DNA from: Amphiscolops sp. MND2022
Taxonomy: Eukaryota
Length of the DNA: 64,000 bases
Direction: 5' to 3'
Assembly: GCA_964187785.1 (NCBI GenBank)
Contig: OZ076409.1
Span: 27,220,001-27,284,000, forward strand
The notes under the pieces were generated by a model that worked only from the letters and a program-made list of their open reading frames with translations, did no database searches and was not told the origin of the DNA. Each line of letters begins with the position of its first letter. Position 1 is the first letter of the stretch. This document shows positions 44,401-64,000 of this stretch, in pieces. A program made the translations under genes and the position numbers.

Positions 44401-47400
44401 TATTTACATTTATCACAAGAAATTTCCTAAATATGGTATACTGCCGTATCTATTCAGTTTGCTTACAATTCGGTCAGAGCGGCGAATTATATTTTTGTTA
44501 TTCTCACATTACAAGACACAACTTTCAGAGTGCGCGTAAATATACGTGTCTAAAATGCCTAAGTTTTCCTTATAAGCCAATATGCATTGAAGTATTGGTA
44601 TTACTGATACATTTTTCAGTTGTTAATACATTACAAATGTATTCAGTTTCCTTAGATTTGATAATTATCAGATTCCTTATAATTCGTATACAAATGCCTC
44701 AAAATGTTTCCCCCCACGTTATAAGTAATCCTAGTACTCAAAACAAGTAATGTTGATACTTTGTATTATAAATCCTAATACGCTTAAAACTTGTTGAAAA
44801 TAGGCTTCCTTATACAACTTGTGAGTATTCTTAGATTTCCTGATTTGAATTATAGTATCCATTGCAATATTATTCTGGTATTATTACAGCCAATGACATA
44901 TACTGAATCAAATCTCTGTTGATATCTTATTCAATAAAGTGCAAATCCTGAACATTTCTGTATTTGAACCATTTATTTGGGCGAATCGGCTGATATCTCA
45001 TTCAATAAACTGCAAACCTTGAAGAAATCGTATTATAAATGCCAGGGAATTGGAAATCTTAAACAATTTCGAATTTGAACAAGGCCATTGCCATGAACAT
45101 CAATTTTCTCGGCGAGAGTTGGGATCTTCTCAAATCTTGATAAATCAAAGTTACTTCTTATTGGTGTTGATGATTTTAAATTCTATTTAAATTTAAATAT
45201 TTGAATACAATTTAAATTCTAGAGCTATGGTATCAAAGAGGTCCCTGATTCAATTGAACAATCCTAGACAACTGAAAAGACCAAAGAACAAAGACAAAAG
45301 ATTTTTTAACAAGTGAGCAAAGACAACAGATTTCAACAATAATCAAAATACAACAAAAGTTCAATGTTTTTCATCCAACAGTTGTGTCTTTTCGTTCAAT
45401 CAGTTGAACATTTTCCATGCTGCAGGATCGCCATAGTCAAACAGAACCTGGGTGAAAGGGGGAAGGTCTCTGAGTGCAACCAGTGCCACTTTTCTAGGCT
45501 TTTGAGGGAGTTTTCTGCAAACTACTTCCCCCAAGCGGGCTGTGCACTGCTTATTCCTGAGCCTTGAGTGATTGCATAGTCTTCCAAGGCACAAATTTCG
45601 GGGATGGTGAGGACAGTCCTCATTGGATGCATCGACAAGACGCCTAATGTCTGTTGAAACTTCAATTATATAGGACATGTCACGGCCTGTTCTTGCAGCG
45701 TACGAGGCTGCATCCTTTTCGTCAACGAGACAACCATGATAGTCGCAGATGACATCGCCCTTTTTAAACGGCTTCAGTGTCATCACGCCACGACCCATGT
45801 CAGGATATGTGACACAGGTGATCCCGTCCCACGTCTGTGTGTCCTCACGGTGTAAAAAGTCGTATTGCCAACCCTCGTTGTTTGAGACACTGCTCTTGTA
45901 CTCCAAGTTCGAATTGAAGGGTGCACCTCGAGGTTTTTGGGCGCTTTTTCCTTCCCGGTAGTCCAATAGAGTTTTATGTAGCTTGGATTTGATTTTCCCG
46001 TCTTGCCATGACCCAACCTTGCACGTGTTCCACCCTTGTCGGAATGCATGGTCAAAGAAATTGGCATAGTCCGTTTCGGGATTTGCTTTGATGCGAAACT
46101 CATCGGCAAAGGCTTCAACCTGCGTGGAGAAGCGTTCAGTCCTTAGCGTCTGCAATCGTTTAGTGACAAGGTTTGTCAAATCCTCGAAGTTGACAGCTCT
46201 TCCAATTGAATTGTACAACAGATTGGAGACATGCTGCACTGACGGAAAGAGTTCATCCGGCTTGTAAGTTGAAGGTGTTTTCAGCCTGACGATACGTTTG
46301 AGGGCGAAATTCTCATCTCTGCAGTTGTGCCTCAGCTGTAATAAGCAAGAAATGAACAAATTAGACGTAGAGAAAATAGATCAAAATTATATTATGTTTT
46401 GTTATCTTCCAAGTGTCACCAAATTCCTTAAACAAATATTCAAAGACCCTAAATGTTGCGTGAAAGAGTTTTGGTGAAAATGGTAGAATAATAGTTTTCG
46501 AACACAGAGGAACGATGTTCGAAACTGCCACGAAACGTAAACTATTCCATCATTTTGAAATTTAGTCTAAAATTTCTCTAAAAACAATAAACAATCCAAA
46601 CAAATTCCAAAAACAATTTTTTGGCTATTTCATATGTCCCTTTCATATTGCATGAATTCTTAGACTCACTTTGACCATCTCTTTCTTTGACTTATCTCGG
46701 AAGTTGATAATGGTGTTTCCGGTAGAATTGAAGAAGAAAGGCTCTGTCCAAACCAGCTTCTCACTTCCCTGAAATCGTGTTTGCATCTGAGGTACTCCAA
46801 TCTTTGGTTTGAAATTCGGACGTACGTCTGAGTAATAGACTTGCAGGCCCCTTCCCACTATCCAAGAGATTGTGTGCGATCTGTAAAACGAATTTTGTGA
46901 CTAGGAAACTAATATTTAGGGAAGTATTTTGACGCTGCTTATTTTTTTGAACTAACTGTTTTCACTGAAGTATTCCAAGACATTTTTCACGTAAACACTT
47001 TTTCTTTCACAGAAATGTTCCATGCAACTAATTTCGAACAATTTTCCACCCACCTGAAACCACCAGGGGTCCTCGTGTTCGCGCAGGTTAAGGTCACTGT
47101 CCCTCGAGTATCCGCCTTGGCTTGAAGTTCCGGGATTGTCTGCGCAAACAAATTCACTGTGAAGGTTTCTAGTTCAGCTGTTGAACATCTTGGTTCTGCG
47201 AACTCCATCAGGTAAACAATTATCAAATTGTGTAACGTCTTCCTGTCAGTGAAGGAGAGGCGAGATGAAAACTCGAACTGTTCCACTAAATCTCCCATGA
47301 GATCTTCGCATGCATCGGCTGGAAACGCTCGATTCTGGACATAAGCAACATTGATGCTCCTAACGAAACTCTCTGCATTGACTTTTTGTCGTTTCGACGC

Positions 47401-50400
47401 ACGTGCTAACTCGTCGTTTTCTTCCTCATTCTGGCACGAATTTTTTCGTTTCCTCCGAACTTCGGAAAGTACTTGTTGAACCGGATTGCTCTCTGGAGCA
47501 GGTTGGAACCGGAATTGAGTTGAAGTGATGGCGTTCATTGTCAGCTCACTCGGCGTTGCAATAAAGTCACCTATCATTGAATCGGTCAGCTGAGGAAGAG
47601 ATGTACTTGGGTTGAGTGGCGTCGAAGTTGGAAGAATGAACTGGTAATCGAAAGAACCATTTACGGCCTGTGTATTAGCCCGAGGAGTAGCAGGCGGCGT
47701 TGGGAGAATTTCAGTCACCCCTCTCAGCAAGTGAGCAGAAGTGCTGAAAGCGGGAGTCTGAGAGAAGATAGGTTGAGATAAAGATTGTGGAAGCACCAAC
47801 GATGTTAATTGGGGATCTCCATTCGCAGAAGCCTGTTCCTCTGCAGTTTTTGCAAAATTTGAGTCGACGGAGCTCAATTTTTTCAATGCTGGTAATTGAG
47901 TCTCTCCATTCTCAGAAGCCAGTTCTTCCGCGGTTTTAGCAAAATTTGACTCGGTGGTGCTCATGATATTCGTTGATGGTAAGTGAGAATCTACAACTTC
48001 AGGAGCCAGTATTTCTGCGTTTTCAGCGAAATTAGACTCAAGGGTGCTTATCATATTCGTTGATTGAACACAAGGAACGAAGTTCTCAAGTTGCAGAACA
48101 GGAGTTTGTTGGCTCATGTCGGGATGTAGAGTTTTTTATCTCGAAGCAGCAGTTTTGAAATGCAAGTGTTCGACAGTTAACTGGAGATTGGAATGATATT
48201 TACAAGATTATCACTCAAAAAAACTAGTAGGCTCAATTCACACGTAATTGGCTCTAATAGCGCCTGAATTTGAGTCGACTCTTGATTTGCGTTGCAAGAG
48301 TGTTTGATAGAATGCTGAAGATTGGTGTGATAATTACAAGGATTATAACTCTCAATTACTGGTCGGCTCATTTTACACGCAATCGGCTGTAATCACGCCT
48401 GAAATTGAGTCGACTCTTGATTGATTACAACTACGCATACATATTACTTTAGTTGATTACAGAACGTTTTTAAACTGATCTGCTGACTTTTTTAGGCTGA
48501 CTAAAAAAAACATTTATTCGTGGGGATGAAATAATTGAGGAATTTCAATTTTTGAGTTTTGAAAGTGTCAATTTGGGTTCCTTTAACAGGGGGACTAATT
48601 ATGTGTCCATCGATTTTCTCAAATAGTAATCGAGACTAATATGTGCATCGACTCTCTTAAACAGTAGTCGAGACTTATGTGTGCATCGATTTCCTTAAAC
48701 AGTATTGCAGACTAATGAGTGCATCGAATTTCTTAAACAGTATTAAAACTAATGTGTGCATCGGTTTCCTTAAATAGCAATCGAGACTAATATGTGCATC
48801 GACTCTCCTAAACCGTAATCGAGACTAATATGTGCATCGACTTCCTTAAACAGTAATCGAGACTAATGTGGGCATCGACTTTCTTAAACAGTATTAAGAC
48901 TTATGTGTGCATCGACTTTCTTAAACAGTCTTAAGACTTATGTGTGCATCGACTTTCCTAAACAGTCGTAAGACTTATGTGTGCATCGACTTTCGTAAAC
49001 AGTATTAAGACTAATGTGTGCATCGACTTTCCTAAACAGTATTGAAGACTAATATGTGCATCGACTCTCTTAAATAGTAATCGAGACAAATGTGTGCATC
49101 GACTTTCTCAAACAGTATTAAGACTAATGTGTGCATCGACTTTCTTAATCAGTATTGAAGACTAATGTGTGCATCGACTTTCTTAAACAGTCTTAAGACA
49201 AATGTGTGCATCGACTTTCCTAAACAGTCATAAGACTTTTGTGTGCATCGACTTTCTTAAACAGTATTAGGACTAATGTGTGCGCATCGACATTCTTAAT
49301 CAGTATTGGAGACTAATGTGTGCATTGACATTCTTAAACAGTATTAGGACTAATTTGTGCATCGACATTCTTAAACAGTATTAAGACTAATGTGTCCATC
49401 GACTTTCCTAAATAGGAATCGAGACTAATATGTGCATCGACTCTCTTAAACAGTAATCGAGACTAATGTGTGCATTGAATTACTTAAACGGTATTCGATA
49501 GTAATGTGTGCATCGATTTCCTTAAACAGTATTCCAGATGATTGTGTAAAGTGTAGAACAGGCATCAATTTTGTTCAACAGTACTCGACAGAACACAATT
49601 GATCCTACCAAAGTTTGCAATGCGCATTCAACTGTCATTGAAAATACCACAAGTAACGACAGTGCTGAAATTTGATTGGTTGAAATGCTGAGATCTTCTG
49701 ACCGCTAAGAAAAGGCATCGACTATTTTGTAGAAATGGCTTCAATTTACTTGAACTTTTTTCAAAATTGAGCGTGCGTCTGATTTATTTTACATTGACAT
49801 TTCATTGTTTCAAATTCAGCTGCCTTCATTCATTAATTTCAAAAATTTAAACAAGCATCATCTCACTTTACTTCGCACATCAACTTGTTTAACCTGTTGA
49901 TCTGTTACTTCTCGGCTTTAGCTAACTAATCCTGTATTCTGTATCAATGTATTCTGTATGCTGTATCCTGTATCCTAACTAATAATGCCTGTATGCGATG
50001 GTAAGTTAAACAACTCTGCAATTTTGCTATATATGTATAGGGCTTTGTAAAAGATGACCTATCAAGCAATAGTCTACGATGAAAAGATGGTACATCTTTT
50101 TACGATGAATTGAGTTATATATTACAAGGAAATATAGTGCAACGAACTGAGTTATGTCTATTTCACGCCTAGAGATAATCAGAGTCTATTTACCAAATAG
50201 GCGTATAACTAACTAATCTGCCTTTTCAGCACAAATTTGCATGTAATTATTGCTTATCGCAAAAGCTTGGATCCTTCTATTTTTTCTGTTGTAACGAGAA
50301 ACCTTGAATAATATAACAATTTTTCGACAATGTAAATAAACCCTTTTAACAGAATTTCTATTTTTTGGTTCAATCTTATTCAGTCTTGTATCTTTATATC

Positions 50401-53400
50401 CACAATTTTTATACTACAATTATTTCATGAAGTTTTGGATCTTTTCTGTTAGTTACAACCCCACCCACAGATTCAATACCCCAATAACTGGCCAAAAAGT
50501 TTTATACGGGAGAGCACAAAAATCGAAGCCAAAATAATGTTCCGTTGAAGCCTCCGGCATGTGTACATGTCAATTTTTGGAATCCTTTGATGAATTTAGA
50601 ACCTCCCATTTCAGATTTAATAAAAAATTTTTCCCAGTGTTTCAGTTTTTCTCTATGACGTACATCAATATCTGGCCAAAAAAAAGCTTTTACGGAAAAG
50701 CACAAAAATCGAAGACAAAATAAAGTTCTGTGAAAGTCTCCTGCATGTGTGCATGTCAATTTTTTGAATCCCTAGATGTATTTAGAACCTCCCATTTCAG
50801 ATTTAATAAAAAATTTTCCCAGTGTTTCAGTTTTTCTCCATGACGTACATTAATAAGTGGCCAAAACAGTTTTTTACGGAAAAGCACAAAAATCGAAGAC
50901 AAAATAAAGTTCTGTGAAAGTCTCCTGCATGTGTGCATGTCAATTTTTTGAATCCCTAGATGTATTTAGAACCTCCCATTTCAGATTTAATAAAAAATTC
51001 TCCCAGTGTTTCAGTTTTTCTCTATGACGTACATCAATAAGTGGCCAAAACAGTTTTTTACGGAAAAGCACAAAAATCGAAGACAAAATAAAATTCTGTG
51101 AAAGTCTCCTGCATGTGTGCATGTCAATTTTTTGAATCCCTAGATGTATTTAGAACCTCCCATTTCAAATTAAATTAAAAAACAAAAATCGAAGCCAAAA
51201 TTTGTTCATTGAAACCTCCTGCATGTGTACTTGTCATTGTTTTGAACACCCAATCTGGTGTAATTTGGACCTCCCATTTTGCATCCAATAAATTTTTATT
51301 CTTTAGTTTTAGTCTCTTGTGGGGAAACAAATCCATTATTGGCAATTATTCAATTTTTTTTCAACGACTTCTTGATGGGCCGCATGTGAGGTATTTTATG
51401 AATCGATTGTTGATGCTTTTAGATTGTGGAGAGAGTTTCAAAAACGCCAAGACCCTGAAGCAGCACAGACGCCGGGGTAATGTGTCACATTGCGTTTTGA
51501 AAGCAGCTGAAGATTTGATAACGAAAAACAAATGGAAAACATGCATGTTTTGTGGCATGAAAGGCACTGCCAAGAGGGACAAAGATGGTGAAATGAAATT
51601 TTTCGAGTTTACCTGTCCCGCGGCAACTGCTCAGCATGCTTTAAACTACGACTGCAAATGGCAGCGAAAGCAAATCGAAGATTCGAATCCACAGGCGATT
51701 ATGAACAAGACGTACAAGGATTTTCAGGAAAGGGATTTCAAAGACCCAGACTCTTATGCTGATGAGTACTTGGCAGCAACTCGAGAAGTTGTCCAAGCGC
51801 TGACGCATGAAAAACAAGTTTTCAAATACACTCTAATGAGGAAAGAGGCATTCCTTCCTCTGAATGTGGACCACTACAAAAAAGGACATAAAGCAGGTGC
51901 CAGCTGGGCTGACTATGGAAGCAACGTAGCCGCTCGGTCGTCCACGGGTAAAACGAATTATCAAATTACAAGAGACTACACTGGCTCTCATTCTGTAAAG
52001 GAGCTGGATCCAACTCCACCGTTAGGAAGAATGTCTGGCACTCGTTAGTGTTGAATAAGTTTTTCAGTTCAATTCCCGACTGCATGTGAAATTAAATAGG
52101 ACTTTCACTGCTTTTCTTGTTAGTAGTGTCTTCAGCGGCAACAACGACCACGAGAATGCCAAAGCCCGGAAGAAGGAGAGCAATATCTTGTTAGTACTTC
52201 GATGGTTATCTGATGTTCAACTTATTAAGATGTTCAATGCGTTTTTTACGTAATTGTTTTCAGGTTCGTTAACGACCACGGGAACAACAACGCCTCGCAA
52301 AAGAAGAGCAACTTCTTGTTAGTAATTCGATGCTTCAGTGATGTGGTTTTGATTAGGTTTTAGATGCTTTTCTTGACAATAGTGTTTTCAGCGCTGATAA
52401 CGACCATGAGAATGCCGAAGCTTCGAAAGAGAAGAGCAACCTCTTGTTAGTATTTCGAAGTTTCACTGATGATGATTTGATTAGTGTTTTCAACGTTTTG
52501 CTTGATTTATGTTTTTTCAGCCTCAAAAACAACAACGAAACTAACATCGCCCCAGAAGAGAAAGGCAACATTGTGTTAGTTTTTCGAAATTCGAAAGAAG
52601 TTGTATTGATTATGATTTAATGCTTTTCTTGAAAATGTTTTTAGCCCCGATAACGACAACAAGTATGACGACTACAAAAATGACAAGAACGGCCGCGAAT
52701 CCCAGCATATGCGGTCCCTTTGGGGAAGCTTCAACAAAAGATAATTGCGGTAAACCAAAACTTTTATTGCTAATGCTTTGAAAGAGTCTTTTGGGAAAAC
52801 GTTTTCAAAAAACAAAAAAATGAAACTTCAAAAAATGTTGTAACAATAAGAGTACCAATGAATAGAACAACTCTAAGTTCAGTTAAGCAAAAAATAGCTT
52901 GATTACTTGCAGGAGACTTCAAATGATAATAAGTTTAGCTTGTCCGTTTTTTTTAGATTTTACTGAACAATTATTGGAATACGGCATGAAAGAGAAACAG
53001 AAAAACCTGAAATTTTTTTCCTTCAAATTGAATTGGGAGGTTCTAAATTCTTTTCCGGATTTGAAAAGAAGAGCTTGTTTATTTGCAAGAGACTTCAAAT
53101 GAACATAAGATTGGTTTCAATTTTTGTGCTTGTTCGCTTTTTTTTAGTTTCCAGAACAAGTTTTGGCGTACAGCATGAACAAAAATCGAGAAACTTTTTT
53201 ACCTTTAATTTTGAATTTTTACATTTAGTTTGAAATGGGATTTATTATTCAGCTTCAAAATATTAGGGATATAAAATAAAGTTATTAGATTTGTTAGTTT
53301 TTTGAAGTCTTATTGATGTTGAATTGAATAAGATTTTTACTGCCTTTCTTAACAAAATTGTTTTCAGCCCCGCTAACGGCCACTAATCTTCTTCGTACTG

Positions 53401-56400
53401 CTTCTCCTCCTCCTACACCTGGTCCTTCTCGTATGGATTCTCCACCTCCAACACCTGGTCCTTCTCGTATGGCGTCTCCTCCTCCTCCTCCTCCTCCTCC
53501 TCCTCCTCCTCCTACACCTGGTGCTTCTTCTTCTATGGCGTCTCCCCCTCCTACACCTGCTCCGTCTCGTTTGGACTCTATTTTCGTACACCTGGTCCTC
53601 CTCTTGCTCCGTCTTCTCGTCCTACACTCTTTCCTCCTCTACCTCCCCTCTTTCAGAAGGCTAAAGCAAGGAAGCGGAGTCCACGAAAATCCCTGACTCC
53701 AAAGAAACGTACGTATTATTTTTCCACTTTATATCCGGGGAAATGTACTAGGTATTTTAAATATTTCCTAAAATTTTTGTTTTGGAAATGATAGTCTGTG
53801 TTGACATTTGTTTTTGTGCTAAGGTGCCGTTCCTCCTACCGGCGGGCCCATTACTCCTGCAAAAAAGCGGAATCCAAGAAAATCGCCGACCCCGAGACGA
53901 ACTCTTCCAACACAATCTTCTTGCAGCTATGATCGTACGTGGTTTTTTAAAAAATCTATAAACATTTAAGGACATTTTATAGGCAATTATTTTTAAAAAA
54001 TGTAAGCCTTTATTTTCCTAAACAACTGAATATTAAACATTGGCAATTGAAAAGTTGATTTCTTGTAGTGTCCTATCTTTTGATTTCGTGTGTTTTCAGC
54101 GATCAATTCAATTGACCCTGATGGCTACCCAACGTTTAGCGACGCCACAGAACTGCGCCAACTGGTGGAATGGTTGCCGATGGGCAAAGAGGGCATAGAC
54201 TACTTGCAATACAAAGCCGAATTCTTTGATCAAAACTCAGCGCTTTTGAAAACGGCTCTAAAAGGAATTGTGAAGAAGCCGATGTTGATAGTTGATGCTC
54301 TCAGACTGAAGGGCTTCTCACACAAATTTGCAGCTGGAGACCTCAAACTTACCGATGAACGTTTATTCAGAGCAGTATTAGCGAAAGAAGATCCAAAAAT
54401 GACAGTAAACTGCAGTTGGCTAAAGGGAGTAAGAAACTTTTGATTATTTTCTCAAATGAATGCTTAACCAACGTAGCGGTTGATTAGAAATCCTGAAAAA
54501 TGACACATCTAAAGAAACTTGATACATTTATCATGTATAAATAGAGAAAAATGTATCAGTAATACACATTCTTCAAAGCACTTTGGCCTATAAGAAAACC
54601 TTATACACTTTAGACACTGAGCGTGAATTATCACTGTCAACAAGTTTCCAAGTCAATGTAGGATGAAATATCATCGGCAATAATTCTCCAGCCTTTTTTG
54701 TTAGAGTTATATTTCACTATTACATCTTTGTTAATTTTTCAGCACGAGTTCGAAATTGAGACCATGCCTCTGAAAACCTATTTCCTCAAGTTCGATCTCT
54801 CCAGACCAATGAACATCATTGATCTGAACGCAACAACAAGCAACAGTCTGCAGTTCGAGCCTGCGAACTTTGTGAAAGAAATCTCCTTGGGACACAAATT
54901 GCAAATGAGACTCCCAAGAGATAAGAGCAGCGTCTGGAAGCTAAACTACGTCATCCTCAGTCAAGCTGGGTGTTTCGCTGACTGGCACGTGGACTTCAGT
55001 GGAACCTCTGTGTTCTACGTCCTCCTTGCCGGAGAAAAAGAGTTCGTTTTTGTGAACGAGACCGGCAAGCTTGGTGAAGGACTGGCCAGCTTTCAGTCAT
55101 CTAGGACAACGACATCCGTTAATAGGTTCTTCGGAGGCAGAAGAGATCTTCAGGCCTACAGAATCACTTTGAAAGCCGGACAGGGCGTTTTAATCCCAGC
55201 AGGAACGCTCCACTTCGTGTCCACAATAGCGAACAGTGTGGCTGTAGGGACAAACTTCTTGACTTTTCAGGAATACCGTTAGTATCTCATGTTGGCAAAA
55301 GTTTGAATAAAATTTTGAAAAAGGTGGCTCCAAACTTATGATCATAAGACAGTATTGATTATTTTTCTTTTATTACTTAATGTTCAATGAATATTTAAAA
55401 AAGTTTTCTTTCCAGCTGCAGCACTCAATGAATTCATGAAGGAGAGGATCAGGAAGGTCAGATATTGCAAATGTTTTCCCCATTTTTGTCACCTGTCTGC
55501 TGCCATGGTATCTGAGTTTGTCCGTCGATGCAAACAAGCGAAATTTAACAAGCAAGCATCCCCACACCCCATTAACGAAGAAGGAGAAATATTTTGGCAA
55601 ATTTGGACTATACATGAAGGCTATTCCTCAATGCTACCCAATTCCATGCGTAACGGGATCCGAAGATCGTTCCGTGCAAGTTTGAGTGAAGTCGCGAAAT
55701 ACAATACAGATATACCGCAGTACCCCAAACTCCCGGAGATAATCGAATACATGAACACCATGTGTGGCTTCTAAACCAGGGGTTTATTTGAAAAAGAAGA
55801 AATAGTTCTTTGTTTTTGTTGAAACATATACCAGTAAGATTTAGATTTCATTAGAACTTGTTACTTTGCGACCTTTGCACAGGTTAATTCTGTTTGAAAA
55901 CAATCTTGGTTTTTGTTGAAATTTGTACCAGTAAGATTTAAGGTTGAACTCCATCGACTTTTTTAAAAAGTATTCGAGACTAATATGTGCATCGACTCTC
56001 TTAAACAGTAATCGAGACTAATATGTGCATCGACTTTCTTAACCACTATTCGAGACTAATGTGTCCATCGACTTTCTTAAACAGTCTTAAGATTAATGTG
56101 TGCATCGAGTTTCTTAAACAGTGTTGGAGACTAATGAGTGCATCGACTTTCTTAAACAGTATTAGGACTAATGTGTCCATCGACTTTCTTAAATAGTAAT
56201 CGAGACTAATATGTGCATCGACTCTCCTAAACAGTAATCGAGACTAATGTGTGCATCGACTTTCTTAAACAGTATTGGAGACTAATGAGTGCATCGACTT
56301 TCTTAAACAGTAGTAGGACTAATATGTGCATCGACTTTCTTAAACAGTAATCGAGACTAATGTGTGCATCGACTTTCTTAAACAGTATTGGAGACTAATG

Positions 56401-59400
56401 AGTGCATCGACTTTCTTAAACAGTAGTAGGACTAATATGTGCATCGACTTTCTTAAACAGTAATCGAGACTAATGTGTGCATCGACTTTCTTAAACAGTA
56501 TTGGAGACTAATGAGTGCATCGGCTTTCTTAACCACTATTCGAGACTAATGTGTCCATCGACTTTCTTAAACAGTCTTAAGATTAATGTGTGCATCGAGT
56601 TTCTTAAACAGTGTTGGAGACTAATGAGTGCATCGACTTTCTTAAACAGTATTAGGACTAATGTGTCCATCGACTTTCTTAAATAGGAATCGAGACTAAT
56701 ATGTGCATCGACTCTCCTAAACAGTAATCGAGACTAATGTGTGCATCGACTTTCTTAAACAGTATTGGAGACTAATGAGTGCATCGACTTTCTTAAACAG
56801 TAGTAGGACTAATATGTGCATCGACTTTCTTAAACAGTATTGGAGACTAATGAGTGCATCGGCTTTCTTAACCACTATTCGAGACTAATGTGTCCATCGA
56901 CTTTCTTAAACAGTCTTAAGATTAATGTGTGCATCGAGTTTCTTAAACAGTGTTGGAGACTAATGAGTGCATCGACTTTCTTAAACAGTATTAGGACTAA
57001 TGTGTCCATCGACTTTCTTAAATAGGAATCGAGACTAATATGTGCATCGACTCTCCTAAACAGTAATCGAGACTAATGTGTGCATCGACTTTCTTAAACA
57101 GTATTGGAGACTAATGAGTGCATCGACTTACTTAAACAGTAGTAGGACTAATATGTGCATCGACTTTCTTAAACAGTAATCGAGACTAATGTGTGCATCG
57201 ACTTTCTTAAACAGTATTAGGACTAATGTGTCCATCGACTTTCTTAAATAGTAATCGAGACTAATATGTGCATCGACTCTCCTAAACAGTAATCGAGACT
57301 AATGTGTGCATCGACTTTGCCTCTGAAAACATATTTCCTGTGAGATTTCTTGTATTTCAGTGAGATTTCAGTAAGATTTAGATTTAATTAGAACTTGTTG
57401 CTTTGAGCCCTTTGCACCAGTCACTTCTGTTTGAAAACAATCTTTTGTGTGCAGATTTTTTTTCGATTATTTAAGACTAGGGTACATTATAGAAATACAA
57501 CGTCACAAAGGGAACAACATTTAAAACCAGCATTAATAACGAAATTAGGATGTAAAGTTCAAAACGATGACGTCTCATCTTTTTTTGTATGTCTTTTGCC
57601 AAATATCTTCTCGATGTCTTGTGTGAGGTTTGAGTAGTTTTGCTTCCGAAATTCTTTGATAAGTACAAACGGGCCTTTGGTAACTCCTTCAATTATTTCT
57701 TTGGCCTCGCATTGTCGTTTGAACAAGGGCTTCATGTCACGAATGGGCACTATTGGTATGTCATTTCCTGGTTTTATTTCATAGTTAGCTGGATCAAGCA
57801 AAGTACGTTTGTTCAAGCAATCAACAACAAACTTTACGTTCAAAAAAACAACTCCCGATTGTACATAACATCTTAACTTTAAAGCTCTTTCCTTTTTTTC
57901 GACAATTTTTTCACGTTTCTCCATTGGTCGGCCAACCCCTGGTTCTCCAGTTGCTATTCTAAGATCTGTTTCATTTTGTACTAAAACATAGCAAAACGGT
58001 AGATGGGAGTGCTTTTCAGTCAGTGTTTTCAGGGCATCTTGGGTCATTACCAGGCCGCCACATTCGAGAATCATCTTGTTCACTTGAACCTGCGTTAGGT
58101 TAGCTTTTCGAAAATCTCCAAATACGGTGAAACGTAGGCCTAGAAAAATCGAATCTTTCTCGCAAGGTGTATCGATTTGAATAGTCCTCGCTTTAATTGT
58201 TTTCCTACATATCCATAGGTAATCTATGTGGAAAGTTGGAATTGGCCGGAAGATACTGCGGAGCTGCATCATACACTCTTCAAAAGCGATTTGTTGCTTG
58301 CTGTGGATATAACATCGAAAAAACGACAAAACCAGATCTTGAAGCATGGGATCAACGTGAAGTAGTTTACCTCCCCCGCGCATTGTCTTTTGATGGTAGA
58401 ATTGATGTGCTCGATGATTCGAGTGCTCCATTGCTTCGGTTAAGTGGTCCCAAGGTGACCGAATACAACCCGATTCGACCAATTTGGGAACAAGAAGGAT
58501 TTTCACTTTATATGGCGTAACTTCGCCAAAGAAAGCCATTGAGATATGATAATATGTCTCCGCCCAGAAATTGTATTCATCAATGAGTTTTTGAGGGAAA
58601 CCGTTTTTCGAACCTCTGAGAATAATGTTCATATTGTTCAAGGATTGCCGCCATAGCTCTGCGGCATCGTACTTTGACATCAAATACCGTTTTGTTTTGT
58701 CTTCAAGTAATACTTCATGCTTGAAAAGTGTTTTGTGACACAGTTTAAGAGTTTCTAGGTTAGCCGGATGGCCCACTAAGTACTCGTTTTCTTTGAAGAC
58801 ATTATCAAAAAGGTTGCTTTGTATTCCACTGTCGCTTCCAAATTCGTCCCGATGAGCAATCGCGAGCAGGGCTTCTTTTCCACTTAAAGACACAGAATTG
58901 CAACTAGTTGGTCCGTTTTTGCTTGTATTGATATTAAATCTGAACCTGGGCTCCTTCACTCCTCTCTCGGTTAAATTGGATTCGAATAGGTTCAAAACGG
59001 TGTAAATTGTTTTCCCGCGGGTCTCAATTAGTAGATTGCAAAACTTTTGCAAGTCATTCTCAACCATTCTTGTGATACCATGGCAAGTGTCAACGCAAAC
59101 TCTTCGGATGTCGTCAAGATAAACCAGGGAAGTTGACGGTAACACCTGCCAGGGTATATTCAGCGTTGTCCGTTTCTTCGTTTTGGGATCAACTGTCGTT
59201 GAGAAAAAAGGTTGGAAAACTTTCTTTCCATCTTTAACGTCAAAACCAATTGACGACTTTTTGCCAACATAGATTGCGCATTTGGAGTCGTCTTCAACGT
59301 TGTCACCATTAACCAATCGCATTACAAATGGCTGATCGCCGGACAACGTCAGTTTCACTTTGTAGTCCTCGACCAGCGTCTTTGTCTGCTGGTAAAGCCA

Positions 59401-62400
59401 TCCACTCTTTTGAACTCCAACTTGTGTTGGGCCGAGGTTTTGTTCCATTGCAAATCTGCTATCATGACCTGCAAACATGTGCAAAACAGTCTCGTATCTG
59501 CATCTTTGGTACAAAAATATTTGATATAGCATGTTTTTGAAGAAAAGTTCTAGCGAATTGCTTATATTAATGCAAGTATTTACTTCTTTATTGAGGCTGG
59601 TAAACCAATGAGATTAATGTGAGAAAAGTTTCTTGATATTTTTTAAAAGATTTTCCGGGACAAAATTTGAGAAAGTTACAAACAGCTGATTTCGAGCTAA
59701 TTCGGGACTTATTTCCGTTTTTCCAATTTTTTACCGTTTAATGCACAATTTCCTTCGCAAGTGTATGGTCAATTAACTCACATAATTCAAACGAATCTAT
59801 AGATCTTTTTCATATTCAAAATATATCAACAGTTTTCGAATCAGTTTAGTTGAATATAAAGCATCGACTGCGGTTCTACAGTTCGTTTGAAAAACAAAAA
59901 GGACTCGTTTAAAACAACAAATGTTGTTCACAACTGTATTCACATATGTAAAAACTTGAGATAGACAATAGATTTATCCACTACATTAAAAGCGCTTGAA
60001 AACATTCCATTATAGTTTGTTAATATTGCTACGCAACTCGTTTTCAGTTTAACATCTTTGCTTAGTTTAAACCATTGATTTTCTTGAACACTTTAGTTGA
60101 ATAGAAAGTATTCATTTTTCCTAACAACGTTCAATCACTTTTGCACAAACCTTTGAAGCAAGCAAATGTGAAACATGCATCTGAAGATTGTGGACTGATT
60201 TTCCCTTTTGTATCAAGAAATCGGAAAACCATTCTCGTACACTCCGAGTTCCCAATTTCAACCCCGTCACCCCAAAGATCAACTGCAACACCTTCTAACG
60301 ATTCAATTCCCGTCAGAAGGTAGTGAGAGGTTCTCACTAAGGTAATCAAATCGGCTCTAAAACCTGAGTAGGTCTTCTCCGGTTGGAATATGTTGTAATA
60401 AAAGCAATGTAGAGGATTTGACAATTTGTTTAATGTTGTAACACTGGGAACTAACTGATCATTTCTTATGCCCTGTAAGTCAAATAAAGTCTTGAGATAA
60501 CCGACCAAATCAACAACATTACCAGTTTTCTTGATCAAATACAAATGCTCCATGAATTGATGGGTGTATCTCGAAGGGAACAGTGCTTTCATGATTTGTT
60601 TCAAATAATTAGGCCGTTGTACAAGTTTTTTTTCGGTAGCAATATAGGCTTTATTTTTCAAATGTTGAATCAAACTCCCAATTTCCAAATCTCGATTGTT
60701 CATTTGATTCAACACATCACTCCAGAAATGATTGCTACTAGTACAAAAAGCGGGCTCGTGTAAATCCGAATTTTTTGCTATTGGTGGTTCTCGATTCTCC
60801 AGTTTCCGTAAGAATTTGCTAATTTCCGAGTTGTTTTCTACTGGCTTTCCGTCTGGAATGAATTCTGGGCCGAAGAAGTGTGCAACAAAGCGTCGGCGAC
60901 GATCTGTCCACGATAGGCCAGTGAATCCTTTAAAGACAAGCAAGAGTGCAATTTTGAATACCACAGCATTGTATTTTGCTCGTCTACCTGTCTCATTGCG
61001 CGTTGCACTGATGAAAACATCGGTGAATTGAACGTTTGTGCCATTCAAGAGACAAGTGATTGCTGGTTTCACTTTCCTTTGCTTGTCATTTATTGTTTCT
61101 TCTGCTAAGTAGTCGAATAACGATAAATCAACATACAGGCCTTCTGGCAAATTGATTAGGTGTTTTTTCAGAATTATCTCCTCATTGCAATAACTCATTG
61201 TAATACCGGGACCGCTTTTAAGGAATAGGATTTCGAAATAAATGGGAAAACGTTTACCAAAATTAGCAACATTCACATTTGAGGCTTACTACATTCTTAT
61301 ACGCTTATCCGCGTTAACGCTTTCATCGAAAAGAGAAACAGGTGCCGTAGATTTACATTTGGTGTCAACGGACTCACATTGCAACATCATCAAAAATCTG
61401 AGTCTAACACCAGAACTGAATTGAGGCAAATTATGACTTGCGAAGACGCAATTTAAAAGCATTCAGAAACCGTAAATTTCATTTTCCACTCTTCGCTTTA
61501 CCTCGAATCAAATTGGTCAATCAATTTTGAACAATCAACAATGCTTTTTGCCAATGTTTTCTTCCAGACTAAGCCAGTCGTTCAAGCTTTGGATCCTGAC
61601 ACTCAAATCTGGGAGGAGGCTAAAATCGAAGGTTTTGAAGGCACCAATCATGTTCGTGTTAATTTTACGCGCTGGGGAAAAAACAAGGACCCTGTTCGGG
61701 TTCTTTTTTGTGACCCCCAAGTTCATCTTGAAAATTGGCCAGTCAGGAAAGCTCTTGAAGAAGTTCTATTTCCCAGACGACACAATATTGATTACAAACT
61801 GGATTACACTAAGGAAAAATTCGCAAAAGGCGATATAGTATATTTTGTTGGGTCGACTGCGCCATCGGTTGGTGATATTATGGAGCCTTGGGAGATGAAA
61901 CAAATGATCCAAGAAGCATCAGTTTTGAAATCTGGAACTGTGCTAATCAATGATAGGTTTAGAAAAACTTTGCTGATTTGCTCCAATGTGGAGAAGTTTT
62001 ATATTTCGTACAACCAGTTGAGGAACTCTGACTGGCAAAAAGAAGGAATAGCTGACGAAGAAGAAATGATACCAATCCCAGTTGCCAAAAAATTGAAAGT
62101 TGAAGTGAAAGCTGTAGTGAAAGAGAAACTGTCGAAGATCAACATTGGAGACATTTTGCGGGCATTGTGCGGATCTGACGAAACCGTTAGCCTGACACTT
62201 GTTCCCACTACGAACGGAATACTAGCAGCAGGATCACGTGTTGTAATAGACTTGTCACAGACGGGGGTTGTACGAAAGCTTTTTTTTGACCGCAGGGAGG
62301 CGCACGCGATGGCAGAAGTAACTTTAGACGGGAGTAAGAGATACATTGGACTGCCAGCCACAGAAGTTGGACTGTCAGTAGACCCCAATCAATCACTTAA

Positions 62401-64000
62401 GAAGCAACAGGAAATCAATTATATGAAATCCCCAGAACTCACAGTGAGGAACCCTAACTTGCACCCAGTTGATGAAGTTTTCACAGTGTTTTCCGCCATC
62501 AAACGGGAACTTTTCCTCTCTTACGACACAATCAGCCACACAGAAATAATATACAGTCCTGTGCCATTTTACATTAGGCAAGTTTTGGGCTGTGAATCGT
62601 CAAGAGATTCGGTAAGCATATGCTAATTGTCAAAGTAGTTAATAGCATCATTGACAACAAGTCTTTGAAAACACTGTGGAGTGTAATTATTGAACTTCCC
62701 AGGGCATTGAAAATCTTGAACAATTTTTTAATCCAGCGTTGCAACTCCAAGGGCTTTCATAACTTTCAGCAATTTTGTATCTGAAGACTATACATGAAAC
62801 CTTCATCAAGCGTTTGTTTTATAATTGTATTTCATTAGTTTTCTTCCATTGGCAGAAATTCACTATCAACGAGGAGCGGGGATCGCATGGAAACAAAGTG
62901 TTTGATGAAATTCTCGGTAAGAAATGGGATCTCCTTGAAACCAGGCCGGATGCTGAGAAGTTTTTCAATCATGTCCTCTTGGGGGTGCGGTTCAAAGTAA
63001 AAACCAGTCTCGCTTTTGAAGCCCTCAAAATTCAAGTTCAAGGACACAGAGGAAACTACGAGGACTATGAAAACTATCGCGAGTTAATCTCGAAAAACAC
63101 AAAAACCTCCTTGGCAGCTTGATAACTTGTGCATTTTCAATTATTCGTTTCTGTTTTTTGATGTAAATTTTGGTTACTTTGTTATTCGTTAGATCATATT
63201 AACATTTACTTTTACCAATAAATAAATTCGAGGAATTAGATAGCTCTTGATTCGATTTTTGTCGTTGAATTATTTCAACTACTTCTGAGGAAAAATGCTA
63301 AGCTGGTAGAGAGTGAAATTTACAATGAGCAAGAGGAGGCATCGGAATTCTTAAACAATTTTACAGGACAAAGTGTATAACTTGTGATTTAAAAAACTTC
63401 TAATTGTGTATCAAAATTACTTTATTAAAATTACTGTGAATCAGCGAATTGCTGCAAGCGACTGCAAACGCATTTTCGTCAAAACCACAATAACATGCGT
63501 TTTTATTAGGATTACTAAAGATTAGTATAAGAAATCCTATTTGTGTATAATGAATCCTTTTTGTGTATAAGAAATACTGTTTGTCTATATGTTCTCCGCG
63601 GAAATAGTATAACTTATACTTGACACTAGTATAAGAAATCCTTATAATGGGGATATTTATGGATATTTATTAGAAATCCTAATAAGTCGCATTAGGTTTC
63701 CTGATAGTAGGTATATAAAATCCTCCGTTTTCACCAAATATTAAAAATCCTTAAATTTTCGAAAAAGTTAAAACATACAAATAGGTAATAATAATACAAA
63801 AAATAATACATTAGGGGCCAGTGAAAATTCCCTTGTGGAGCATTTAAGGATATTTAATAAACTTTTGAGGCTCGTGAAAGTTGTGTCTTGTAATGCACCC
63901 GGTATCTCTTCGTCGGTATAGAGTTGTAATGCTTCGTCTTCCAGATTTGTCTGTATCGAGATATATCGGCCATTGCGTTCCGATGTATCATATGTTTGTC
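17411..64000 (-). CDS. Multi-exon host gene for a low-complexity S/T/E/K-rich protein of unknown function. Inferred exons: >=64000-63899, 44382-44206, 42196-41961, 29420-29327, 28845-28516, 28163-27939, 27550-27326, 26498-26298, 25896-25838, 20522-20381, 19439-19407, 17803-17681, 17415-
   Basis: Exons delimited by hand from AG acceptors and GT donors; intron phases chain consistently (1,1,0,1,1,1,1,1,0,1,1,1) into one reading frame. Caveats: in-frame TAG at 44248-44246, two GG-like donors, no recognised domain, and exons may be missed. Confidence 0.65.
20650..20804. mobile_element. Small foldback-type MITE
   Basis: Three copies of aataacgtctaa on the left face three copies of ttagacgttattc on the right. 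Confidence 0.65.
22601..22956. mobile_element. MITE with TIRs built of TTTCAACC sub-repeats
   Basis: tatacactttcaacctatgcaatttca... versus ...tgagattgcataagttgaaagtgtata; repeated ttcaacc/ggttgaa motifs in both arms. Confidence 0.75.
23192..25014 (+). mobile_element. Internally deleted hAT DNA transposon with a CGGBP1-like N-terminal zinc finger
   Basis: TIR CAGGGATGAAGG...CCTTCATCCCTG. 8-bp TSD GTTGAATG (25015-25022; GTTGACTG at 23184-23191, exact copy at 23000-23007). Remnant ORF SAKQR..KDGDALFCRICLSYVDHSRQSLCDQHL resembles the CGGBP1/BED finger; C-terminal remnant FFNP...LPNLCELA. Confidence 0.85.
23763..24283 (-). mobile_element. Helentron-like non-autonomous element (HINE-like), copy 1, nested in the hAT
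   Basis: Subterminal inverted repeats AGTCGGCGC/GCGCCGACT, small terminal GC-rich hairpin region, T-rich flanks, no TSD; shares a core with the other three copies. Confidence 0.7.
25170..25670. repeat. Interspersed element with two ~180-bp internal tandem units
   Basis: gaaaagtttttgagaaaa...tttttggtcatttt.gact.gttttggctatg...tttctcagatcc at ~25183 and ~25351. Confidence 0.55.
29709..30243 (-). mobile_element. HINE-like element, copy 2
   Basis: Same ends (ggaacggcccaagtcagcgccacatctaaggctcaaaaatagc ... aagcgccgactaa) and the internal tRNA-like segment. Confidence 0.75.
30788..31235. mobile_element. MITE with ~22-bp TIRs and an 8-bp TSD (Merlin- or Mutator-like)
   Basis: GGACCCTATGTTCAATCCCCCC...GGGGGGATTGAACACATGGTCC, flanked by AGTGGGTC and AGTGGGCC. 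Confidence 0.8.
31259..31550 (+). mobile_element. Possible old LTR fragment with a PBS
   Basis: TGTAA...AAACA followed by tggcgcccg..gagcaaagggac, resembling a tRNA-Lys PBS (TGGCGCCCGAACAGGGAC). No partner LTR seen. Confidence 0.35.
32392..33586. mobile_element. Non-autonomous TIR element with TA target duplication (Tc1/mariner-pogo-like termini)
   Basis: TA|TACCATTTGTATATCAAGTTAAACA ... TGTTTCACTTGGAATACAAACGGTA|TA; subterminal aaattcaagtgaaaca repeats in both arms; contains HINE copy 3. Confidence 0.75.
32737..33090 (-). mobile_element. HINE-like element, copy 3 (internally deleted)
   Basis: acaagccgggaacggcccaagtcggcgccatatctaaggctc ... aagagccgactaaaaaa. Confidence 0.75.
36320..39748 (-). 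CDS. BEL/Pao Gag-like polyprotein (149-aa and 991-aa ORFs separated by a stop/frameshift at ~39296-39301)
   Basis: LPKLKLAEFSGDPLEWPEWSQLF...KMNHLKT..G.AKEAI (DUF1759-type gag) and C-terminal NDLVWIVDE...YKMGKV..V..G.DGRVRSA.VKT..G...RPVVKLAP (DUF5641-type). No YxDD or integrase DDE core. Confidence 0.85.
39784..40023. repeat. Minisatellite of 10 x 24 bp in the LTR element leader
   Basis: Unit CACAATAGCCCAATCTCCCAGAGA. Confidence 0.95.
42829..43484 (+). mobile_element. HINE-like element, copy 4 (different internal region with short tandem units)
   Basis: ttttagtcggcgc ... tttgagccttggatatggcgcggacttgggccggtcccggcttgttt; internal gggtcccccttcaa repeats. Confidence 0.75.
45400..48117 (-). CDS. 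SET-domain lysine methyltransferase (SETD8/PR-Set7-like), 3 exons 48117-47054, 46880-46670, 46335-45400, ~736 aa
   Basis: GRGVMTLKPFKKGDVICDYHG, GRLCNHS and ALRDL...VLFDYGD SET motifs. GT-AG introns (phase 2, phase 0) join the ORFs without stops. The N-terminus is low-complexity with three ~35-aa repeats. Confidence 0.88.
48590..49540 (+). repeat. 37-38 bp satellite array 1
   Basis: About 25 copies of GAGACTAATGTGTGCATCGACTTTCTTAAACAGTA(A/T)T(C/A). Confidence 0.95.
50490..51290. repeat. ~184-bp tandem array (3 full units plus a partial one); diverged inverted copies at ~52895-53240
   Basis: Near-identical spurious ORFs at 50756 and 50940 are 184 bp apart. Motifs cctgcatgtgtgcatgtcaatt and gaacctcccatttca recur; reverse-complement gggaggttctaaat at 53035. 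Confidence 0.9.
51423..55774 (+). CDS. JmjC-domain histone demethylase-like protein (KDM2/KDM7 type). Inferred exons: 51423-52043, 52136-52189, 52264-52317, 52392-52445, 52521-52574, 52645-52749, 53368-53708, 53824-53933, 54100-54428, 54743-55277, 55416-55774
   Basis: YVILSQAGCFADWHVDFSGTSVFYVLLAGEKEF...LIPAGTLHFVST..NSVAVGTNFL contains the HxD...H iron triad and the conserved Lys. N-terminal Cys/His cluster (CGESF..AKTLKQH, CMFCG); Pro-rich linker; phase-consistent GT-AG introns. Start exon unresolved; one apparent 1-nt frameshift near 53582. Confidence 0.85.
55945..57320 (+). repeat. 37-38 bp satellite array 2 with a 339-bp higher-order repeat
   Basis: Same monomer as array 1, about 36 copies. 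Identical spurious ORFs at 56501 and 56840 (339 bp apart, about 9 monomers). Confidence 0.95.
57559..61198 (-). CDS. DDE transposase (CMC/Transib-RAG1-like core) with a C-terminal BRCT domain; exons 61198-60151 and 59468-57559, ~985 aa
   Basis: Ordered motifs DLWGDG, FACFKG|HDSR, LSGDQP, VDTCHG (DxxH), VTPYK and TEAMEHSNH. BRCT-like IFLGLRFTVFGDF...VNKMILECGG.V...FVVDCLNKRTLLDPANY. A phase-1 intron (AAAG|gtttgt...ttgcag|GT) joins both ORFs in frame. The start codon is uncertain. Confidence 0.82.
61568..63122 (+). CDS. Protein with an N-terminal Tudor/chromo-barrel-like domain; exons ~61568-62611 and ~62856-63122
   Basis: VQALDPDTQIWEEAKIEG.....VRVNFTRWGKNKD fits the Royal-family pattern (EAxD..W..AxI...VxVHFxGW...D). 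Donor TCG|gtaagc and acceptor ggcag|AAA are both phase 0. The first exon and a possible middle exon are unresolved. Confidence 0.6.

Follow-up and report, generated by a model that had tools for sequence, protein, structure and literature searches.

The 64,000-nucleotide stretch analysed here (the window) was taken from Amphiscolops sp. MND2022 (assembly GCA_964187785.1, contig OZ076409.1, positions 27,220,001 to 27,284,000 of the forward strand), and coordinates below count from its first letter. At 44507-63895 it holds an element of 19,389 bp, a cut-and-paste DNA transposon with perfect 21-bp terminal inverted repeats (TIRs) and a 2-bp target-site duplication (TSD). Four genes were predicted inside it in two divergent pairs, a SET gene (-) with a JmjC gene (+) and a transposase gene (-) with the gene of a tandem small-barrel protein (+), which is the layout of the family to which the window copy belongs (family A). 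The element and its cassette are read below as a selected chromatin module that serves the element, a reading we hold with good confidence. The boundaries and genes are as follows.

44505..44506, unstranded: left copy of the TSD (CA), in the flank; one CA or TA stands at the paralogous empty sites
44507..44527, plus strand: 5' TIR, 21 bp, beginning CATTACAAG; from the inverted-repeat pair and the genome count
45403..48117, minus strand: KMT5A/SETD8-like SET gene; predicted exons at about 48117-47054, 46880-46670 and 46335-45403, SET domain in the last exon
51398..55774, plus strand: KDM7/PHF8-like JmjC gene; predicted exons at about 51398-52043, 54100-54428, 54743-55277 and 55422-55774, 3' end approximate
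57562..61198, minus strand: transposase gene; exon 1 at about 61198-60151, exon 2 at 59468-57562; predicted RAG1/Transib-like DDE core and C-terminal BRCT
about 57650-58150, minus strand: C-terminal BRCT domain of the transposase
61541..63119, plus strand: gene of the tandem small-barrel (Tudor/BAH-like) protein; predicted exons 61541-62611 and 62856-63119
63875..63895, minus strand: 3' TIR, 21 bp; from the inverted-repeat pair
63896..63897, unstranded: right copy of the TSD (CA); from the flank and the empty sites

Boundaries, mobility and copies

The two TIR arms (44507-44527 and 63875-63895) are complementary over 21/21 nt, and CA flanks the element on either side. The TIR 21-mer was counted in the 1.07-Gb genome (1929 contigs) with up to 2 mismatches allowed. 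Matches numbered 156 in forward and 163 in reverse orientation; the reversed control had 7 and 3. Many plus/minus TIR pairs were spaced 19.36-19.41 kb apart and others 0.25-3.8 kb. For the TSD sample, 7 further long pairs and 17 short pairs were extracted beside the window copy. Identical 2-bp flanks were found in 8/8 full-length copies (CA, AT, AA, TT, GG, AT, TG, TA) and matching flanks in 15 of the 17 short pairs, the chance per site being 1 in 16. Both the perfect TIRs and the 2-bp TSD given in a preliminary description of this DNA were thereby reproduced. The two short pairs that missed, L021 and L022, are one duplicated locus with flanks CA/CT. They are identical 680-bp elements, 2.6 kb apart and with the same flanks (C3:78393903-78397342), which points to a local duplication that contained the element. 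No strong sequence preference was seen at the 24 insertion sites.

Empty sites were sought as paralogous, not allelic, copies of the host repeat that received the insertion. Four of four such copies (about 90% identical) are uninterrupted at the insertion point and carry a single CA or TA there. The flanks themselves (44150-44506 and 63896-64000) belong to another repeat family, with 40 scored matches at 77-100% identity, the window's own included. Minus-strand open frames at 44246-44449 and 63768-63998 are apparently one coding region that was split by the insertion, and a stretch related to this host repeat also lies near a copy of a second family (family B, below) on C7. Fixed segmental duplications with common flanks were considered as the source of the copies; differing flanks and differing TSDs contradict them. 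The interval 44507-63895 was confirmed as a mobile, autonomous class II cut-and-paste (TIR) DNA transposon.

Exon-level protein searches of the genome recovered about 15 copies of family A; each of the four genes led to the same 15 loci, at 96-100% identity. Full-length copies aligned end to end at 99.6-99.8%, and substitutions (within-orientation comparisons only) came to 0.11-0.24%. Since the full-length copies differ by so little, family A is considered very young. Among the 15 copies the coding segment was open in 11 for transposase exon 2, in 14 for the SET exon, in 13 for the JmjC exon and in 12 for the barrel open reading frame (ORF); all four were open in 9/15, which agrees with the mostly open frames seen at first in the window copy. 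Two full-length copies lie on C10 (4507383-4524773 and 4616393-4633589), about 100 kb apart and in opposite orientation, as local hopping or an inverted duplication could have left them. The short TIR-bounded elements have 190-520 bp of the 3' end in common with the full-length element at 91-97% identity and are non-autonomous derivatives resembling miniature inverted-repeat transposable elements.

Encoded proteins and non-coding parts

The SET protein matched Pfam SET at 3.9e-11. All 14 of its 14 PDB sequence matches were KMT5A/SETD8 (best 2.6e-10). The GRG, NHS and DY motifs were invariant in 5/5 aligned sequences. A homologue search with SET returned only 5 matches, none of them named as KMT5A. 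The protein is predicted to be a KMT5A/SETD8 (PR-Set7)-like methyltransferase. The JmjC protein matched Pfam at 2.1e-6 and, in the PDB, ceKDM7A (1.3e-16), PHF8 (7e-15), KDM7A (3e-14) and KDM2A (5e-12), also PHF2. Its iron ligands HxD...H (WHVD and H157) and the 2-oxoglutarate (2OG) lysine K99 were invariant in 4/4 sequences across families; the 2OG-binding threonine T88 was kept in 3/4, with isoleucine in L062. A KDM7/PHF8 (JHDM1-group)-like dioxygenase with intact Fe/2OG residues is predicted. The SET and JmjC genes had both been named in the preliminary description, and both assignments stand. In the available text of two papers (PMC5034662, PMC5542855), KMT5A is the monomethylase of histone H4 lysine 20 (H4K20) and Kdm7b/PHF8 its antagonist on the product, H4K20me1.

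Upstream of JmjC, an exon encodes a C2H2-like finger whose weak Pfam scores stay under the cut-off (0.024 for family A and 0.0013 for family C), and this zinc-finger exon was also kept in families B and C. Between it and the next JmjC exon, 53294-53791 is a Gly/Pro-rich low-complexity stretch with a 36-bp period and several open frames on both strands.

For the transposase, joining the exons at 60151/59468 yields the sequence found in an intronless homologue of 1175 aa, and the intron is corroborated because of this match. An AlphaFold model was examined for the intronless family D homologue L026:3290-5824, which is 41% identical to the window transposase (predicted local distance difference test, pLDDT, 69.6; core 80-95). 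The model has the strand order of a ribonuclease H (RNase-H) fold (beta1-3, alpha1, beta4, beta5), with D132/D136 on beta1 and D216 after beta4. D132, D136 and D216 were invariant, as were E506 and E509 (47/47 sequences). An acidic residue at position 539 (46/47) is an alternative third catalytic residue to E506/E509.

Foldseek returned 32 matches to this model at E<=1e-3, namely 31 RAG1 rows and HzTransib (best RAG1 1.9e-5); Hermes scored 4.7e-3. In VIA-align, RAG1 was superposed with Z 16.1 and a root-mean-square deviation (rmsd) of 4.2 Å over 379 residues (model 75-560 onto RAG1 479-1007), and HzTransib with Z 14.7 over 363 residues. A weak lead to a RAG1 fragment was also given by the ESM Atlas (0.75). 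Model residues 598-767 aligned with the BRCT domains of MDC1 (Z 11.1), Rev1 (Z 10.8; 90/90 aligned, rmsd 2.2) and 53BP1 (Z 10.7). The transposase profile matched the BRCT of DNA ligase IV at 5e-4, and Pfam BRCT_2 matched the transposases at 3e-4 to 1.5e-3, below its cut-off. BRCT was found in families A, C and D (by Pfam or structure) and in database homologues, and the C-terminus of the family B protein has conserved BRCT motifs. Judged by the model, the protein is a DDE (Asp-Asp-Glu) enzyme with an RNase-H-like core, a RAG1/Transib-like fold and a BRCT domain. A transposase had been called in the preliminary description; no sequence family supports the call, and the fold decides it.

A profile of 20 transposases was run against 1.84 billion representatives and matched 576 clusters, of which 187 reached E<=1e-30. 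Because the family reaches 576 clusters and has no Pfam model, a large branch of RAG1/Transib-like enzymes seems to have gone without annotation.

The AlphaFold model of the barrel protein has three beta-rich modules. Foldseek placed it among Agenet, MBT, Tudor, PWWP and Spindlin readers and Spt5 KOW (5e-4 to 3e-2), a PDB profile search gave no match, and the ESM Atlas gave leads to Tudor_3, Agenet and 53BP1_Tudor clusters at only 0.76-0.82. The VIA comparison covered Foldseek's list and 48,161 representatives. Module 209-281 aligned with the BAH cores of EBS (Z 8.7), Rsc2 (8.2), AIPP3 (8.1), DNMT1 BAH1 (7.5) and ORC1 (6.8), the best of them (Z 8.1-8.7) over 61-64 residues with rmsd 1.8-1.9. 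Module 87-170 aligned with the Tudor domains of PHF1 (Z 7.5; 59/60 aligned), TDRD3 (7.0) and 53BP1 (6.5), with 58-59/60 residues aligned for PHF1 and TDRD3. By eye, barrel 1 has conserved tryptophan and aromatic positions. The modelled protein thus consists of SH3-like small barrels of a Tudor/BAH-like kind. As the Z values are middling, it is described here as a presumptive histone reader; of the Tudor-like reader first proposed, the small-barrel fold stands, with Z of only 6-8.7 and no Pfam match for the narrower label.

The remaining features inside the element are these.

44528..45006, unstranded: 5' subterminal region with 5 copies of [AT]TCCT[AT]A
47801..48064: coding repeat within the SET gene, 87 bp x3
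48601..49538, unstranded: 38-bp unit repeated 24.8 times in tandem, in the interval that separates the divergent SET and JmjC genes
50482..51182, unstranded: 184-bp unit repeated 3.8 times in tandem, directly upstream of the JmjC gene
54546..54617, minus strand: inverted 72-nt copy (83%) of 5' subterminal 44546-44617, within a predicted JmjC intron
55952..57318, unstranded: second array of the 38-bp unit, repeated 12.1 times at a period of 113 (= 3 x 38), flanked by the JmjC and transposase 3' ends
61199..61540, unstranded: intergenic 342 bp between the divergent transposase and barrel-protein genes, from gene geometry
63396..63874, unstranded: 3' subterminal region with 3 copies of [AT]TCCT[AT]A; the end common to the short elements at 91-97%

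Of the 21 sites of [AT]TCCT[AT]A, 8 fall within the terminal 2 x 500 bp, which gives modest support to the subterminal repeats already noted in the preliminary description. The interval 61199-61540 presumably serves as a bidirectional promoter, and 54546-54617 may be an old nested-end relic or an internal binding site. The 38-bp-unit arrays on the two sides of the JmjC gene have the same orientation and recall the arrays beside PAG3 in red-algal Plavaka elements; family C has internal arrays of its own, with a 183-bp period. Rfam gave no match within the window. Elsewhere the window is repeat-rich, with a reverse-transcriptase ORF at 2017-4098 (RVT_1, 6.7e-36) and a 992-aa ORF with DUF1759 and DUF5641 at 36320-39298, a domain pair typical of animal BEL/Pao retrotransposons; judged by these, the host is probably an animal.

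Conservation of the cassette and its possible functions

For each of the four genes, the exon-level searches returned dozens of further open copies in the genome at 25-41% identity. Three further families were extracted.

Family B, on C7, 18,943 bp: perfect 23-bp TIR beginning CATTACAG; TSD GT; four genes in the order of family A
Family C, on C10, 16,483 bp: TIR beginning CATTAC; TSD AC; transposase (+), JmjC (+), barrel (-), SET (+)
Family D, on C13: all four genes present

Families A, B and C end in CATTAC...GTAATG and have a 2-bp TSD. Termini were not found in the family D region; an A-like terminus beginning CATTACAAGACACC lies at its position 8852. The order in family D (L047+L026+L048) is apparently JmjC, barrel, SET, transposase, a circular permutation of that in family C (L046+L045). 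A fifth conserved gene was not found, the coding blocks conserved against the three other families falling only in the four genes. The family A copies and families B and C supply the further TIR-bounded elements, with the same genes and different TSDs, that the preliminary description proposed to look for.

Six environmental contigs include the region upstream of the transposase, and in 3 of them a divergent barrel gene was found there; the contigs are too short to show SET or JmjC. One metagenome contig (L068, 7380 bp) carries the barrel/transposase pair and, next after it on the other strand, an ORF of the PLAC8 family (1.3e-11). In L066 the transposase adjoins an ORF with an integrase zinc-binding domain, probably of another element.

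Ratios of nonsynonymous to synonymous substitution (dN/dS) were calculated between family A and subfamilies 77-92% identical to it. They were 0.11-0.12 for SET, 0.16-0.18 for the transposase, 0.15-0.16 for the barrel protein and 0.20-0.22 for JmjC. By these values the SET, JmjC and barrel genes are under purifying selection as strong as that on the transposase. They are regarded as the element's own genes and not as passengers because the same four genes occur in four families at 25-41% identity and dN/dS is 0.11-0.22. Single-copy host genes, the case that the preliminary description had set against itself, were not what was found; the genes recur in at least four families under purifying selection.

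Several points weigh against the reading of the cassette as an element-serving chromatin module and against the names given to its proteins. The four gene models are predictions; their splice sites are predicted and the transposase intron is the sole corroborated one, so that of the four spliced genes in two divergent pairs first described the pairs stand, together with one intron. Pfam scans of the exons upstream of JmjC did not find the PHD finger of PHF8/KDM7, and the substrate specificities of SET and JmjC are assumed from the nearest solved relatives at about 30% identity. No Pfam transposase family was matched by the window transposase or by 14 long database homologues, and the PDB profile search matched no chain at E<=10, RAG1 and Transib included. 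In the model, residues 507-535 around E506/E509 have pLDDT <50 and are partly of low confidence. The C(2)C and H(3-4)H zinc motifs are not strictly conserved in the transposase, with both spacing and conservation off (C282 in 23/45 and C284 in 32/45 sequences; H513 in 47/47, H514 in 26/47 and H516 in 24/47). None of 11 members of the barrel-protein family matched Pfam, including Tudor, Agenet, MBT and BAH, and its Z values of 6-8.7 are middling, in a range that may mirror a common arrangement. One JmjC copy, L059, gave a dN/dS of 3.5 with a changed iron-binding histidine; the value was set aside because its synonymous component (dS) is 0.008 and the copy has freshly decayed. Finally, the evidence does not separate break repair from anti-silencing or targeting as the service rendered.

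The cassette presumably acts on nucleosomes for the element's benefit, and of the routes by which it might do so, management of the chromatin of the element's own breaks is ranked first, at somewhat less than an even chance. Excision of the RAG type would leave the DNA broken on both strands. Repair or timing at the donor and the target would then be steered by the transposase with its BRCT tag, by the barrel protein and by cyclic methylation of H4K20 in the neighbourhood. In the DNA-damage response, which H4K20 methylation and BRCT domains both serve, the latter bind phosphoproteins. This route is put first because it is the only one to account, in addition, for a writer of specifically KMT5A type and for the BRCT tag. 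A bolder version is a free-living RAG1/Transib-like lineage with its own break-repair chromatin, in which a KMT5A-like writer of H4K20me1, a PHF8/KDM7-like eraser of that mark, a Tudor/BAH-type reader and the BRCT tag would recruit or steer end-joining where excision breaks the DNA. It is rather doubtful. If true, it would be a transposon-borne counterpart of the 53BP1/H4K20me/BRCT axis used by V(D)J recombination, and a natural system for how RAG-like enzymes first coupled to host repair chromatin.

Next comes an anti-silencing kit, a tentative possibility. JmjC would strip H3K9me2, H3K27me2 or H4K20me1 from the element's nucleosomes, SET and the barrel protein would keep the two bidirectional promoters open, expression would be raised, and the tandem arrays would be docking sites. 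The nearest solved relatives of JmjC (ceKDM7A, PHF8, KDM7A) remove repressive methyl marks. An element-encoded precedent exists in VANDAL, and in the sources as available epigenetic accessory genes are described in Plavaka, KDZ and HarbingerS elements; the 38-bp arrays on both sides of the JmjC gene are like the arrays by PAG3 in Plavaka. However, this route leaves both the KMT5A-like writer (14/14 PDB matches) and the BRCT of the transposase unexplained, and no KDM7-type enzyme is known to remove trimethyl marks.

Targeting or tethering is unlikely. Here the barrel protein, perhaps with BRCT, would read a histone mark and guide the transposase, and SET and JmjC would prepare or erase that mark. 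An analogue is found in chromoviruses, which are guided by chromodomains. The barrel modules resemble Tudor and BAH readers, the barrel gene stands beside the transposase on 3/6 environmental contigs with upstream flank, and in the window the two genes share what would be a 342-bp divergent promoter region. Yet the 24 insertion sites lack a strong sequence preference and the reader function of the barrel protein is itself presumptive; that the window copy sits inside another repeat is compatible with targeting and is not evidence for it. Capture and fusion of reader domains by transposons have been discussed as a means of targeting in the part of bioRxiv 10.1101/2021.11.30.470311 that was available.

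That host SET, JmjC and barrel genes were merely caught by a Pack-type element and do not serve it is highly improbable. Gene capture is common in DNA transposons (Pack-MULE, Pack-CACTA, giant elements of Ectocarpus), but the four genes are kept here in four families at 25-41% identity with their order rearranged, dN/dS is 0.11-0.22, catalytic residues are conserved and 9/15 copies have all four segments open. A host chromatin gene cluster between chance inverted repeats, favoured by nothing beyond SET and JmjC genes being normal host genes, is next to impossible against 319 TIR matches versus 10 for the control, about 15 copies with differing flanks and TSDs, and 4/4 empty sites.

Classification and comparison with known systems

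Clade criteria and motif definitions were applied as given in the available text of PMC12730594 (Kojima 2025), where most members of the CACTA-Mirage-Chapaev-Transib clade have 5'-CA...TG-3' termini and a TSD of 2-5 bp. The element fits this clade in its CA...TG termini, 2-bp TSD, subterminal repeats, large size and RAG1/Transib-like fold. Its relation to EnSpm/Transib/RAG1 transposases was found by fold only, with scores well above Hermes and no PDB sequence match. Pfam Transposase_21 gave no match at E<=0.1 to 1 in the transposases of families A, B, C and D or in 14 database homologues. The TSD of Transib is 5 bp, which the 2 bp found here do not fit, and that of Mirage is 2 bp, with which the element agrees in length. 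Because of the modelled fold and the termini, the element is placed in the CACTA-Mirage-Chapaev-Transib clade, as a Mirage-like or new lineage. The En/Spm label of the preliminary description is kept at the level of this supergroup only. The first 10 bases of the TIR are one position off the plant En/Spm TIR.

The usual view of transposons is that host chromatin silences them, and a few are known with one epigenetic enzyme. Here a whole lineage has a predicted writer and a predicted eraser, and H4K20me1 is the mark on which the nearest solved relatives of both act. With them come a reader-like protein and a BRCT of the DNA-damage type on a RAG1-like transposase, all under purifying selection. 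What a transposon gains from editing histones is directly testable in this system, since there are young, probably active natural copies of which 9/15 are open.

The preliminary description knew of no element with the full combination. In the literature searched (Repbase, Dfam and supplements being outside the search), no element was found with a KMT5A-like SET, a KDM7-like JmjC, a Tudor/BAH-like protein and a BRCT-tagged RAG1-like transposase together, and that part of the claim stands. Its novelty is reduced because red-algal Plavaka elements carry SET and 2OG-oxygenase genes. These giant elements of the EnSpm/CACTA lineage, with their PAG1-3 cassette, are reported in bioRxiv 10.1101/2025.02.11.637652, and the comparison follows its text as far as available. 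Both kinds of element are 17-19 kb long and CACTA-related, with a DDE transposase and three accessory genes, which in both comprise one SET protein, one 2OG-dependent oxygenase and a third protein whose family is unknown. In both, tandem arrays adjoin an accessory gene and the cassette is kept across families. In Plavaka, by contrast, PAG2 is an N6-adenine DNA methylase plus SET, and PAG3 joins a 2OG oxygenase to a ParB-like domain, with only weak detection by HHpred. Here the SET protein is stand-alone and KMT5A-like, the JmjC is clearly of the KDM7/PHF8 type, the third accessory product is Tudor/BAH-like, and the transposase ends in a BRCT domain; Pfam scans of the element's proteins found no DNA-methylase or ParB domain. 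The likeness to the PAG cassette is one of design, compared by description and not by demonstrated homology.

Other accessory-gene cases are more distant. As far as the available texts of PMC12730594 and bioRxiv 10.1101/2025.02.11.637652 go, SET genes occur in oomycete HarbingerS, MuDR and Helitrons, and TET/JBP dioxygenases in fungal KDZ, Plavaka and others. The HarbingerS, MuDR, Helitron and KDZ cases have one accessory enzyme and belong to other superfamilies, and those texts, to the extent available, report no paired writer and eraser with a reader-like protein and a BRCT-transposase. Giant EnSpm, KDZ and Sola elements bearing accessory genes are described in algae (PMC12477816, as available). 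VANDAL elements (MuDR) are alike in that VANC alters the element's own epigenetic state, but VANC is not a histone-modifying enzyme. SETMAR likewise has SET and a transposase in one locus, but it is a host fusion gene derived from an immobile mariner copy.

Among animal CACTA-related elements, SmTRC1 and its insect relatives have 2-bp TSDs according to the accessible part of PMC1636069. TRC/EnSpm elements share the 2-bp TSD and the CA...TG termini with the present element and differ in having Transposase_21, which was not found here. The closest structural matches lie with RAG1/Transib, whose DDE core of RNase-H type is likewise interrupted by a large insertion ahead of the final acidic residue. 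In contrast to that lineage, the element described here has a 2-bp TSD, and its BRCT tail and its three chromatin genes take the place of a RAG2-like partner.

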